Below are positions 5,017 through 31,385 of a stretch of 64,000 nt of DNA, piece after piece (within the stretch, counting starts at the first letter, position 1; every line of letters begins with the position of its first letter). The DNA is taken from the IMG/VR virus record IMGVR_UViG_3300042196_000418; one strand, 5' to 3'. The notes beneath the pieces were generated by a model, which did not search any database, was not told where the DNA came from, and saw only the letters and a program-made list of their open reading frames with translations. The stretch is from a virus. Lineage: Duplodnaviria; Caudoviricetes. A program made the position numbers and the translations under genes.

Positions 5017-5140
5017 CCGGGTAGTCCAGTACCCGGCTCTCGAGCGCCACGCCGCCGTGAGCAGGGAGCTCTGGGTATCGAGCTACCCAGGTTTTACGTC
5101 CGCGGGCTTAGGCCGCTGGAATCACGGCACGCCGCAAGCA
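5017..5140 (+). promoter_or_regulatory. Two GGGTA-N6-TACCC palindromes plus sigma54-type -24/-12 element
   Basis: Palindromes 5019-5034 and 5073-5088; GGCACGCCGCAAGCA with GG 5126-27 and GC 5138-39. Confidence 0.75.
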
Positions 5141-5153
5141 AAGGAGGATCAGC

Positions 5154-5597
5154 ATGCCGCGCTACATGACGTTCCGATTCGACGTGACCGCACTCACCGA
5201 GCGCCAGCGCGAGATCCTCGCTGGCTCGGTGATCGCTCAGCATGAGGCGAGCGACTTCAACTACGAGACGACCCAGGAGTGGGCGGACGAGAACTACCCC
5301 ACCGTCAAGGTTGCTGAGGTCTGCCACTTTTGCGGGCAGGTGAACGAGAACGGTGAGTGCGGTGGCGAGGGCGAGGGCATCTGCACCGAGCTTATGTGCG
5401 TGTCCGACTTCGCGCTGCCCGGCAAGCTTTCACCCACGTACAGCGACGACGTCGAAGCGTACGTGCGCGACTACTGCGCCGAGCACGGCATCGAGGACTC
5501 GCTCGTGCCCTACCGCGCTGACGGACTGACGTACTACCAGCAGCTCGCGTACATGGTGCGCGAGTACCACGACCTTCCCCAGCCCAAAGGCGAATGA
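5154..5597 (+). CDS. Acidic hypothetical protein, first gene of operon
   Basis: 147 aa, CHFC...C motif, strongly GC3-biased codons. Confidence 0.8.
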   Translation: MPRYMTFRFDVTALTERQREILAGSVIAQHEASDFNYETTQEWADENYPTVKVAEVCHFCGQVNENGECGGEGEGICTELMCVSDFALPGKLSPTYSDDVEAYVRDYCAEHGIEDSLVPYRADGLTYYQQLAYMVREYHDLPQPKGE

Positions 5598-5622
5598 TCA
5601 TGCTGACCACGACCGGGAGACC

Positions 5623-5847
5623 ATGAAGATGAAACGTCCCTGGCTGAGACCGTCGATCCGTGTTGGATGCCAGGTGCGCATCCATAAGGCCGTTCCTGGC
5701 TTCGGCGAGGCGCTCGATCGCTACGCTGACGTGATTGCCGAGAATCCTGGACACTTGCTGTTCAAGGTGCGCGTTCATGGCGGACCTGCGAAGGGTCAGG
5801 AGCACTGGATGCGTCTCGAAGATCTTCAACTCGTCGGTGTTACCTGA
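5623..5847 (+). CDS. Small beta-rich (SH3-like) hypothetical protein
   Basis: IRVGCQVRI...W..LEDL pattern. Confidence 0.6.
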   Translation: MKMKRPWLRPSIRVGCQVRIHKAVPGFGEALDRYADVIAENPGHLLFKVRVHGGPAKGQEHWMRLEDLQLVGVT

Positions 5848-5881
5848 ACCCCGCGCCTCGCGCCCCGAAGGAGTCTTGACC

Positions 5882-6082
5882 ATGGTTGCGCTCTTGACCA
5901 CCATCATCCAGTTTGCCCTGCACCTCAACGATCCGCAGTGGTCGTGCGAAGTCACGCACCGCGATCCCAGCATCGCCGGAACCTACTACCTGTACTGCTC
6001 ACAGATGACGCCCGACGGCGTGGAGCTTGTCACCGTCGGCCGTTTCATCTCTGACGCGAAGGCGTCGAAGGTCACGCCGTGA
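5882..6082 (+). CDS. Hypothetical protein
   Basis: AAGGAG SD; GTGA-coupled to next gene. Confidence 0.65.
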   Translation: MVALLTTIIQFALHLNDPQWSCEVTHRDPSIAGTYYLYCSQMTPDGVELVTVGRFISDAKASKVTP

Positions 6083-6402
6083 AGCTCTACGCGCGCACAC
6101 CAGCCGGCACGGGCCTCGGCCTTGATGTCCTGCTAACCGGTCAGCTGAACGAGTCGGACGGCAAGATCCGCAGTATCGAGGTCTCCCTGCCGAATGGCTG
6201 CGTGCAGGTCGTTGGCTGCCGCATCAAGACAATGCCCAAGATGCCGCGTGGTCGACAGCTTCTGTGGACAGACCCCGCTGACATCTACGCCGACGATGGG
6301 GACAGCCTCAGCCCTGAAGAGTTGCGCAACGAAGCTGCGCGCGTTCGCGAGAAGCGCCGCGCAGAAATGCTGCACGGACCGCTCGGGGAGAACTGGCCGT
6401 GA
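6079..6402 (+). CDS. Hypothetical protein
   Basis: Coupled ORF. Confidence 0.7.
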   Translation: MKLYARTPAGTGLGLDVLLTGQLNESDGKIRSIEVSLPNGCVQVVGCRIKTMPKMPRGRQLLWTDPADIYADDGDSLSPEELRNEAARVREKRRAEMLHGPLGENWP

Positions 6403-6710
6403 GCGCCAAAGCCGAATTCGAGTTCCACGACGTGATCCGCGTGCGGATCGAGCTGCGTGCGCCCAAGAAAGGCGCGCTAACCTGGGCTGTTCCCATCGAG
6501 GCGACGCCCGCGGAGGCACTCGATCACGTCACCTGCGGACGCGACGTCTGGTCGGCCGGCGAAGCGGGCTTCGGCTTCTACGCCACCTGTGATGACGGCG
6601 AGCTTGCCTACTTGGCCGAGGTGGGCATGCGCTACATCGTCGTGTACGTCGACCACGTGCGCACCGAGCCCCGCCTCAACAACGTCATCCCTCACGTCAA
6701 GCTGCTCTAG
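6399..6710 (+). CDS. Hypothetical protein
   Basis: Coupled ORF. Confidence 0.7.
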   Translation: MSAKAEFEFHDVIRVRIELRAPKKGALTWAVPIEATPAEALDHVTCGRDVWSAGEAGFGFYATCDDGELAYLAEVGMRYIVVYVDHVRTEPRLNNVIPHVKLL

Positions 6711-6716
6711 GAGCAC

Positions 6717-29687: not shown

Positions 29688-29806
29688 CCAAGTTCAACCT
29701 CTCGATCGACCTTCGCACGCACGGTGATAGCGCTAGCGCTACTGCGAGCATGTTCCCATGAAGGCGAAGCTGCTCGCCGCTGCCCCGGCAGCCGATCGTC
29801 GATACG

Positions 29807-30064
29807 ATGTGCACGTCGTGCCCATTCAGACCGAACGCAGGCAAGCCAAAGATCAACGTGACGCCGGCAGAGCTGGAGAAGTTCAAGGACACTGCCCGGC
29901 GCAGCGAGTTCTACTGTCACGAGACCGTGCTCGAAGACCCGCGCACGACTGTCGGCGCCGATAGCGAGCCGTCGCCTCGCGTGCAGTCTCACTTCCGCGT
30001 CTGCCGTGGCGGGTGGGGGCTCAAGCTCAAGCACCTCGGAGCAGCGCGACGGAAAGAACAGTAG
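29807..30064 (+). CDS. Cys/His protein (CxxCPFR...FxCHxT...CxG), DUF6283-like
   Basis: Motif visible; coupled ATG at 29758 is out of frame. Confidence 0.6.
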   Translation: MCTSCPFRPNAGKPKINVTPAELEKFKDTARRSEFYCHETVLEDPRTTVGADSEPSPRVQSHFRVCRGGWGLKLKHLGAARRKEQ

Positions 30065-30067
30065 CCC

Positions 30068-30394
30068 ATGGTCAAGCTCGAACGGATCACCGAGGAGACC
30101 CTGACGCCCGAGCACACCGAGCGCGTTCGGCGTGCGGTGCTCGGCATCCCCCGCAAGAACTCAGTCCACCGCGCGATCCTCGCCGACTGCGCGCGCGTGC
30201 TCACCGGTGACAAGGCCGCTCGCGCGACCATCGTGCGCACCTGGAACGCGATGGTCACGCCGATCGACGAGCTGATCGAAAACTCCTCGCTGGGCGCCGC
30301 CATGCGGGACATCAAGGAGCGCGGCCTGGATGCGCACCTCAAGACCCTGGACGAAGAGCTGCGCCCCAAGCGTCGCGTGCGGAGGAAGCCGTAG
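30068..30394 (+). CDS. Hypothetical helical protein
   Basis: 108 aa, GC3-biased. Confidence 0.7.
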   Translation: MVKLERITEETLTPEHTERVRRAVLGIPRKNSVHRAILADCARVLTGDKAARATIVRTWNAMVTPIDELIENSSLGAAMRDIKERGLDAHLKTLDEELRPKRRVRRKP

Positions 30395-30451
30395 CGATGT
30401 CCAGGCACAACAAACCCTGCTTGCCCAGCTATCACCCAAGTGGAGCGAACG

Positions 30452-30685
30452 ATGCGCGATGAAAGCCCGGGATGGTGCAAGCCGCGCAAACCGTGCGTCG
30501 GGTGCGACGAAATTGTAGCGACTGGAATCAGCTACCAACCGCACACGTGTCTAGCCTCAACGCCTGTCGGGGCGGCTATCGGCCTTGGCCCGTGTGCTGA
30601 GTGCGAGTCGCTGCGCGACGACCCGTGCCGTTCTCCGAGCAGGCGTACGCGACTGCCCCATGCGGGTCGTAGGAGGGTTGGATGA
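30452..30685 (+). CDS. Small zinc-finger protein
   Basis: CVGC and CAEC...PC...HAGR, similar to 26153-26443. Confidence 0.5.
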   Translation: MRDESPGWCKPRKPCVGCDEIVATGISYQPHTCLASTPVGAAIGLGPCAECESLRDDPCRSPSRRTRLPHAGRRRVG

Positions 30686-31029
30686 CAAACGAACCGACCA
30701 AGGTGGCAGCGGAGAGCGAGGCTCCCGATCACCGCTTCCTCACGAACATCCACCAACGCAAACTCGAAACCGATCAGATGATCCAGCGACGGCGACGGTT
30801 CACAAACTACGCCACGCCCGCAGAGAACCTGCCGATGAAGCGATGGACCGCGGGAATCGCCGCGCTACGCCGGTTCGCTGCCGGCGAACGATGGAATCGC
30901 CGCACGAGGCGGCTCACCGTGCAGCGCCTCTACGTCGAGGGGCTGATCGATGATGTCGGCGATGACTACAACTGGAAAATAACCGAAGCCGGCAAGGAGT
31001 TCCTGTTCCGGCTCGACGGAGGCTGCTGA
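30682..31029 (+). CDS. Winged-helix-like hypothetical protein
   Basis: TVQRLYVEGLI...WKITEAGKEFL. Confidence 0.6.
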   Translation: MTNEPTKVAAESEAPDHRFLTNIHQRKLETDQMIQRRRRFTNYATPAENLPMKRWTAGIAALRRFAAGERWNRRTRRLTVQRLYVEGLIDDVGDDYNWKITEAGKEFLFRLDGGC

Positions 31030-31259
31030 TGGGTCGTCACGACCACGTCCACGTCCACGCGTCCGAGACCCGCGTCGACGTCGTGTGCGAGTCCTGTCAG
31101 GCGCCGATCAACGTCGCGTGCTCATGTGCCGAAGGAACCCTGACGTCGGACCGAGCAACGTCTGACCGTGCGTCCGAGACCCGCGTCGACGTCGTGTGCG
31201 AGTCCTGTCAGGCTCCGGTCGGAGTCGCGTGCACGTGCGCCGACGGAGTTTTCACGTGA
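31029..31259 (+). CDS. Cys/His-rich protein with internal duplication
   Basis: HDHVHVH plus two copies of ASETRVDVVCESCQAP...ACxC. Confidence 0.6.
   Translation: MGRHDHVHVHASETRVDVVCESCQAPINVACSCAEGTLTSDRATSDRASETRVDVVCESCQAPVGVACTCADGVFT
31059..31213 (+). repeat. 44-bp exact direct repeat, 111-bp period
   Basis: 31059-31102 identical to 31170-31213. Confidence 0.9.
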
Positions 31260-31262
31260 CCG

Positions 31263-31385
31263 GGGTACTTCGATACCCGGCTCAGCACCGCCACGCGATG
31301 TGTGAACCGCGAGCTCTGGGTAGCTACCTACCCACGGTCACCTCTCGCGAACTTACGTGCAGATCGGACCGGCACGCGGGTCGCA
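31263..31385 (+). promoter_or_regulatory. Two GGGTA-N6-TACCC palindromes plus sigma54-type element
   Basis: Palindromes 31263-31278 and 31318-31333; GGCACGCGGGTCGCA with GG 31371-72 and GC 31383-84. Confidence 0.75.

Follow-up and report, generated by a model that had tools for sequence, protein, structure and literature searches.

The present analysis concerns a 64,000-nucleotide (nt) stretch of viral DNA (Duplodnaviria; Caudoviricetes; IMG/VR record IMGVR_UViG_3300042196_000418), hereafter the window, in which long trains of small genes on the plus strand are headed by a recurrent non-coding cassette of ~135 bp that combines one or two GGGTA-N6-TACCC palindromes, a third conserved element, and a core resembling the −24/−12 signature of sigma-54 promoters. 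We consider these cassettes likely to be sigma-54 promoters with tandem activator sites, i.e., enhancer-plus-promoter modules, a reading drawn from sequence comparison and favoured because of the GC(A/T) found at −12 in related cassettes, the fixed geometry, the spacing of the palindromes by helical turns, the sharing of palindromes between divergent promoters, and the recognition of the window’s copies by a profile built without them. The feature itself is real, and it is best described as what would be the standard promoter of a huge phage lineage, namely a sigma-54 enhancer-promoter module with an extra element and a near-leaderless layout. An initial annotation of the window had proposed sigma-54 promoters with a phased upstream enhancer, and all of the sequence tests that we ran favour a predicted −24/−12 box with activator sites.

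Full cassettes head three units of the window (5154 to ~28828, 29050–31259, and 31399 to ~44000), and the minus-strand glycosylation block at 44–61 kb contains no cassette. The parts of the cassettes and the two imperfect palindromes are given below, with functional names following the favoured reading and L numbers denoting the related loci treated further on.

2984–2999, unstranded: one-mismatch palindrome inside a coding region, with nothing cassette-like downstream
5019–5034, unstranded: cassette 1, putative distal activator box GGGTAGTCCAGTACCC; the upstream open reading frame (ORF) stops at 5014
5035–5053, plus strand: cassette 1, inter-box segment GGCTCTCGAGCGCCACGCC, common to the subfamily L009, L016a, and L022c and partly present in the window’s 31-kb cassette and L015
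5073–5088, unstranded: cassette 1, putative proximal activator box GGGTATCGAGCTACCC; the palindrome is extended to CTGGGTA..TACCCAG at 5071–5090
5101–5112, plus strand: cassette 1, third conserved element of the CGCG..CTTRCG type; TT 15 nt before CGGCACG
5125–5140, plus strand: cassette 1, sigma-54-type −24/−12 box CGGCACGCCGCAAGCA
5141–5597, plus strand: Shine-Dalgarno (SD)-like AAGGAGG (5141–5147) and first gene of unit 1, ATG at 5154, 147 aa, without a Pfam family
12342–12357, unstranded: lone degenerate box GGGTATAAAACAACCC in a 71-bp gap, without a −24/−12 box
28967–28982, unstranded: cassette 2, putative single activator box GGGTACCTATCTACCC, without a distal box
28998–29009, plus strand: cassette 2, third conserved element in a weak form AAACGTTACCTG; TT 16 nt before TGGCCCA
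29020–29035, plus strand: cassette 2, sigma-54-type −24/−12 box in a weaker form TGGCCCAGGAGTCGCA
29050–29436, plus strand: first gene of unit 2, 128 aa, ATG start
31263–31278, unstranded: cassette 3, putative distal activator box GGGTACTTCGATACCC; the upstream ORF stops at 31259
31318–31333, unstranded: cassette 3, putative proximal activator box GGGTAGCTACCTACCC
31346–31357, plus strand: cassette 3, third conserved element CGCGAACTTACG
31370–31385, plus strand: cassette 3, sigma-54-type −24/−12 box CGGCACGCGGGTCGCA
31399–32436, plus strand: first gene of unit 3, RuvB-like AAA+ protein, ATG start

Palindromes of the form GGGTA-N6-TACCC were counted at up to one mismatch and compared with dinucleotide-preserving shuffles (n = 100). 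The window contains seven such matches versus 0.23 expected, and none of the 100 shuffles reached seven. Exact copies start at 5019, 5073, 28967, 31263, and 31318, and one-mismatch copies at 12342 and 2984. The five exact copies and the one at 12342 had been reported in the initial annotation, and reading the sequence bore out these positions together with the distances between paired boxes (54 bp from 5019 to 5073 and 55 bp from 31263 to 31318), the placement of GG at 5126, 29021, and 31371 (53, 54, and 53 bp after the start of the proximal box), the GC-to-ATG distances of 15, 16, and 15 nt, and the AAGGAGG at 5141–5147; the copy at 2984 was absent from that list and is judged to be a chance match outside the system. 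A self-trained gene call based on codon usage placed ~105 genes in a nearly unbroken plus-strand chain from 100 to 44,000, mostly with 4-bp overlaps, and all five exact boxes lie inside gaps of this chain, gaps making up at most 11.6% of the window. Small CxxC-rich ORFs whose coding scores are low fill most of the remaining apparent gaps, which leaves the cassette gaps as the real non-coding interruptions of the gene chain. The palindromes had also been said to cover all four main gaps, which is roughly right as far as the gaps are concerned, but the gap at 12342 holds a degenerate box that lacks GG-N10-GC, has too little space for it, and is followed 60 bp later by a GTG start; this box is not a promoter, since the core is absent.

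Several further observations were made on the intervals between genes. The CxxC-rich apparent gaps at 768–942, 4210–5014, 26871–27386, 28103–28486, and 30395–30681 are probably genes of small zinc-ribbon proteins whose coding scores are weak, and small proteins of the window give weak Pfam matches to Phage_zn_bind_8 and Fin. After the stop at 28828 and ahead of the single-box cassette, positions 28871–28905 carry GATC(T/C)GCTAAC twice, together with the small inverted repeats GGATCTG..CAGATCC and CTAACG..CGTTAG, without a T-run. A 78-nt segment at 31059–31247 is duplicated with a 111-nt period and 88% identity within a Cys-rich ORF of 76 aa (31029–31259), which ends 3 nt before the distal box of cassette 3.

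Relatives were sought by scanning public metagenome contigs with the pattern TGGGTA-N6-TACCCA-N32-37-CGGCACG, which returned 24 loci, nine of them true relatives by their flanks (L005, L013, L024, L009, L014, L015, L016, L021, and L022), with L005, L013, and L024 sharing one cassette sequence. Several of these loci share coding DNA with the window at 70–84% identity, and two sit on contigs of 201 and 231 kb. The pattern placed no demand on the −12 position, where GC with A or T behind it was present in 9/9 related cassettes versus 0/12 chance matches. A palindrome-only search of the related loci produced the additional cassettes L016b, L022a, and L022b, with GG 52–54 bp after the box, and a double-box scan of IMG/VR added one true relative, L080, for a total of 14 cassettes on nine contigs (three in the window; one each in L009, L013, L014, L015, L021, and L080; two in L016; and three in L022). 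A profile hidden Markov model built from only the eleven non-window cassettes matched the window at 31315–31387 (E 4e-12) and 5070–5135 (E 1.5e-9), and with the box part of the cassette at 28966 (E 0.002), and identified no further full cassette in the 64 kb.

The first genes behind the cassettes encode unrelated proteins; among the relatives, cassettes stand before ParB-HTH (helix-turn-helix) genes, a ComM-like ATPase, and an operon encoding two pectate-lyase-like proteins of the tailspike type, and the module thus serves more than one class of gene. The ParB-HTH first genes (L013:5377–6249 and L015:6934–7752, the latter on the minus strand) are 62% identical at the protein level and stand behind orthologous cassettes. 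In L080 (IMG/VR 3300014969_000740), where 9434–9502 was also noted, the cassette heads an operon at 573–5090 on the minus strand in which the two pectate-lyase-like proteins are ~750 aa long, and a MerR/HTH_17 protein is encoded just upstream. A stand-alone receiver domain protein (L009:7419–7778; Response_reg, E 3e-8) is inserted between homologues of the window genes 3509–3769 and 3766–4209, and it could interfere with a two-component activator.

Other searches for relatives returned little. A megablast of window positions 31000–43000 against phage GenBank gave no match, and an exact-sequence scan of IMG/VR gave 0 matches. The three matches to the strict cassette in IMG/VR were all unrelated, and the 35 matches to the third element plus core were all chance matches, none with a box. 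IMG/VR relatives identified by protein (L042, L043, and the 172.5-kb G403) contain no boxes; G403 lacks a Sigma54_activat gene and gives a single sigma-54-like match.

The putative activator site as it appears across the 14 cassettes is a 5-N6-5 inverted repeat with invariant arms, paired in 12/14 cassettes and locked to the downstream GG by a box-to-GG distance of 52–55 bp in all 14. The distal box lies 53–55 bp upstream in eight cassettes and 62–64 bp upstream in four, two spacing classes separated by one helical turn; the remaining two cassettes have only one box. Behind the distal box GT(A/C)TC is usual, and the arms of the proximal box are in many cases lengthened to CTGGGTA..TACCCAG. Two divergent promoters in L022 share the boxes at 3395 and 3457 (62 bp apart, 3395–3472), each of which is the proximal box for one of them. 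If the palindromes instead acted as RNA hairpins where the upstream units end, to terminate or process the transcript, one would understand why a terminator scan flags 5070–5091, which is followed by TTTTAC, and why the proximal boxes fold at −6 to −14 kcal/mol, some of them with GGTTT(T) behind. This is highly improbable given that, among 22 unique boxes, the arms are conserved in sequence, the central six bases are free, no compensatory changes occur, and the only arm variants (A:C, T:T, A:C) break pairing; in addition, the T-run is missing from most cassettes, including that at 31318, and the L022 boxes serve both orientations. The non-covarying arms, the helical-turn spacing, and the divergent use therefore point to a protein site on a given face of the DNA helix that is free of orientation, and the boxes behave like the site of an enhancer-binding protein, not like an RNA hairpin.

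A dimeric protein could also be a repressor, and we weighed the palindromes as operator sites for a regulator of the partition type or a repressor acting globally (KorB/ParB-like or a different HTH dimer), which would silence or coordinate every unit of the element, with the type of promoter being a separate matter. The IncP KorB regulon places one operator before many units, as the boxes do here; ParB-HTH genes are the first genes behind the L013 and L015 cassettes; and the lone box at 12342 stands without a promoter, all of which an operator would explain. Such operators are nonetheless distinctly unlikely to account for a box that stays 52–55 bp from the −24 box in every cassette, for a one-turn shift in box spacing and a divergent sharing that are typical of activator sites facing the polymerase, or for the upstream activator that sigma-54 needs, there being no other conserved upstream site; the window encodes no ParB-like protein.

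Between the proximal box and the core lies a third conserved element, CGCG-N2-3-CTT(G/A)CG, which goes beyond what the initial annotation described. Its TT is present in 14/14 cassettes, 15–16 nt before (C/T)GGCACG, which places the element at ~−53 to −40 from the predicted start (~−46), and no free-standing copy was found elsewhere in the window. The core itself reads (C/T)GGCACG-N4-YGC(A/T): GG-N10-GC is exact in 13/14 cassettes (L022a has GG at −12), GGCACG is present in 12/14, and A or T follows the GC in 14/14; information content is highest at CCGGCACGC and GCW, with the N4 and the flanks free to vary. The rightward L022 cassette, with GG rather than GC at −12, heads a ComM/Mg-chelatase-like AAA+ gene (L022:3538–4770). 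At GGCACG, Y, GC, and W, and in the obligatory 10-nt spacing, the core agrees with the sigma-54 consensus TGGCACG-N4-TTGCW, and the neighbouring positions drift. The only good sigma-54 matches in the window are the three palindrome-linked copies, CGGCACGCCGCAAGCA, TGGCCCAGGAGTCGCA, and CGGCACGCGGGTCGCA.

The same blocks can be drawn as a promoter of the sigma-70 family, extracytoplasmic function (ECF)-like or served by an element-encoded sigma factor, with CTTGCG as the −35 element, CACGCN 17–18 bp later as the −10 element, a start near GCW, a leader of 14–16 nt that includes an SD, and palindromes at ~−60 and ~−114 as class I activator or repressor sites. This arrangement would explain the third element, with its invariant TT, its fixed distance to the next block, and its failure to occur alone in the window, as well as the SD-like cores 5–9 nt before the ATG in ~8/13 cassettes and the fixed distance from block to ATG before unrelated genes. 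We find it unlikely, in that the downstream blocks reproduce the sigma-54 consensus (GGCACG, then YGCW) exactly at the GG-N10-GC spacing, for which another promoter class gives no reason. The TTGCGN-17/18-CACGCN layout leaves a −10 far from any known consensus (CACGCN is very poor, and TAnnnT is absent), a sigma-70 scan found 0 sites in 1–40000, and no sigma factor gene lies within the window. A start at GCW, 10–11 nt after CGGC, is also too far for an ECF −10. Sigma-54 holoenzyme opens no promoter without an upstream AAA+ activator, and the tandem upstream sites therefore fit the requirement of the core.

The ATG of the first gene lies 13–16 nt after the GC in 13/14 cassettes, the exception being L013 (43 nt); in its orthologue L015 the distance is 15 nt. 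As the first genes are unrelated, this distance belongs to the module and was not inherited with the gene. The canonical sigma-54 start, 11–12 nt after the GC, is predicted at ~5151, 29046, and 31396, 3–4 nt before the ATG, and a published start distance of 19 bp from the motif centre (Bonocora et al., PMC4591121) is consistent with these positions. All 14 first genes start with ATG versus ~50% of genes across the element, and the ATG is mostly the first possible start codon of the ORF. Both the module-bound distance and the uniform ATG speak for a functional role of this close spacing. Leaderless translation requires AUG (PMC3616915), and the uniform use of ATG suggests near-leaderless transcripts. 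An invariant C before the ATG was considered as a signal for the transcription start site and rejected, as 62% of all window genes have C there.

Several results weigh against a sigma-54 promoter. The generic consensus with GG and GC fixed and up to three further mismatches occurs 31 times in the window versus 33 expected, and GG-N10-GC occurs 12–18 nt before called start codons six times versus 6.6 expected; the −24/−12 motif is not enriched alone, and the case therefore rests on the linkage and conservation of the elements. For an activator that acts by looping, a proximal site centred at ~−70 is near, and to our knowledge the conserved −46 element belongs to no described sigma-54 promoter. 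The presence of sigma-54 in the host is an assumption. The activator is likewise missing from what was searched: the GAFTGA, ESELFGH, and RpoN-box motifs are absent from six-frame translations of the window and of loci L001–L027, so that the GAFTGA-containing activator that the initial annotation proposed looking for was not found within the window or the related loci; a Pfam search of the 106 plus-strand window proteins returned no Sigma54_activat, HTH_8, sigma factor, or ParB-like domain; and the related loci encode no activator, sigma factor, or Fis-type HTH protein. A scan of 185,579 species, each represented by one genome, yielded no strict cassette (14 matches, none real), box-plus-GGCACG-N6-GC gave 0 matches in 401 Acidobacteriota genomes, and neither the species-wide nor the Acidobacteriota scan found a host regulon with this box or a binned copy of the element. 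Finally, SD-like cores stand between GC and ATG, where a sigma-54 start would drop them from the mRNA, in an element in which 67% of window genes use an SD versus 12% of random positions; the share among cassettes is similar, about two thirds. The conflict between AAGGAGG and the predicted start that had been pointed out previously is thus real, as the SD lies upstream of the predicted 5′ end.

The arrangement of the upstream genes offers one way to accommodate these cores. The upstream ORFs stop 3–4 nt before the distal box (5014/5019 and 31259/31263), and neither the terminator scan nor the folding of the boxes gave a convincing terminator before the cassettes; we therefore argue for read-through transcripts that use the SD. 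We infer that the first cistron would be translated via the SD on read-through RNA and in a near-leaderless manner on the cassette’s own transcript.

Beyond these regulatory questions, the Pfam search of the plus-strand proteins identified only RuvB, a Ser/Thr kinase, a glycine-rich domain, and a few weak matches, and no tRNA or Rfam family was detected in the window. One weak Sigma54_activat match in the related loci was a ComM/Mg-chelatase-type AAA+ protein. The RuvB-like protein falls among viral clusters, in keeping with a phage. Family assignments among ~130 genes are nearly limited to a 506-aa protein with a weak GHKL ATPase match (6717–8237), the Ser/Thr protein kinase (38152–39705), and a 1205-aa FkbM-methyltransferase/TPR (tetratricopeptide repeat) fusion on the minus strand (48059–51676), and >90% of the plus-chain genes are ORFans.

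Taken as a mechanism, the sigma-54 reading would run as follows. Dimers of an enhancer-binding protein of the NtrC family type would bind the 16-bp palindromes, centred at ~−70 and ~−125 (or ~−133), while RNA polymerase with host sigma-54 would wait as a closed complex on (C/T)GGCACG-N4-YGC(A/T). The CGCG..CTTRCG element (~−53 to −40) would probably bind a bending or auxiliary protein, with whose help an activator no more than ~45 bp upstream of −24 could touch the polymerase. Hydrolysis of ATP by the activator would open the promoter, and transcription would start 2–5 nt before the obligatory ATG. The first cistron would thereby be near-leaderless, and a long series of coupled small genes would come after it; the SD-like cores between −12 and ATG would serve read-through transcripts from the upstream unit. 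Most transcription of the element would thus probably await one enhancer-binding activator, which would be either a host protein or a protein encoded elsewhere on the element (>200 kb), outside the window.

Full-text literature searches found no report of a phage with operons dependent on both sigma-54 and an enhancer. It is possible, though we put it forward only tentatively, that a huge soil/sediment phage lineage runs essentially its whole gene programme through sigma-54 by means of a portable three-part cassette made up of two enhancer boxes, the −46 site in an auxiliary role, and a −24/−12 core joined to a 5′-proximal AUG; this programme may, with the same reservation, take in DNA-metabolism genes, hundreds of small ORFan genes, and tailspike-like genes, with an element-encoded or hijacked activator and near-leaderless transcripts. 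If true, the lineage would provide the first enhancer-dependent regulon to span a whole virus, as well as an orthogonal sigma-54 expression system of natural origin. Without an ATP-driven activator to open them, sigma-54 promoters stay silent, and placing most operons behind them would amount to a single hard on-switch for the virus. The module is compact, modular, and present on at least nine contigs, and could serve as an orthogonal expression part. The fixed 13–16-nt distance from −12 to ATG raises the question of leaderless translation of sigma-54 transcripts, and the identity of the activator would also point to the host.

Among known systems, phage T4 late transcription shares a viral programme gated by an activator that is delivered to promoter-bound polymerase, but it relies on its own sigma factor gp55 and a sliding clamp, without sigma-54 and without a DNA-sequence enhancer (PMC2988020). 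In the KorB/KorA regulon of IncP plasmids, too, a palindromic operator recurs before most of the transcription units that a mobile element carries; KorB acts as a repressor of sigma-70 promoters over variable distances, whereas the cassettes have a fixed geometry and a sigma-54-like core. Leaderless mRNAs, such as lambda cI and the leaderless transcripts of Sinorhizobium meliloti (lmTSS, all AUG; PMC3616915), share the need for ATG and a start codon near the predicted 5′ end, although true leaderless mRNAs begin at the A of AUG and the start predicted here lies 2–5 nt upstream, with SD-like cores present. Integration host factor (IHF)-assisted sigma-54 promoters (pspA/PspF, Pu/XylR, and nifH/NifA) share a conserved site between the activator sites and −24, the place at which a bending protein would be active; an IHF site at −46 was considered and rejected, as CGCG..CTTRCG is, judged by eye, unlike the E. 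coli IHF consensus WATCAANNNNTTR. The tandem-site promoters of the NtrC type (glnAp2, NmpR) have in common with the cassettes a GG-N10-GC core matching TGGCACG-N4-TTGCW, two upstream inverted repeats of the dimer type, orientation-independent use, and face-of-helix spacing. The NtrC-like activator NmpR of Myxococcus xanthus recognizes a 5-N5-5 palindrome, GCGCA-N5-TGCGC, of the same style as the boxes described here (PMC11841059). Unlike these promoters, the cassette resides on a virus-like element as a copy-and-paste module before unrelated genes, and has its proximal site only ~45 bp from −24, an extra −46 element, and an ATG 13–16 nt after the GC.

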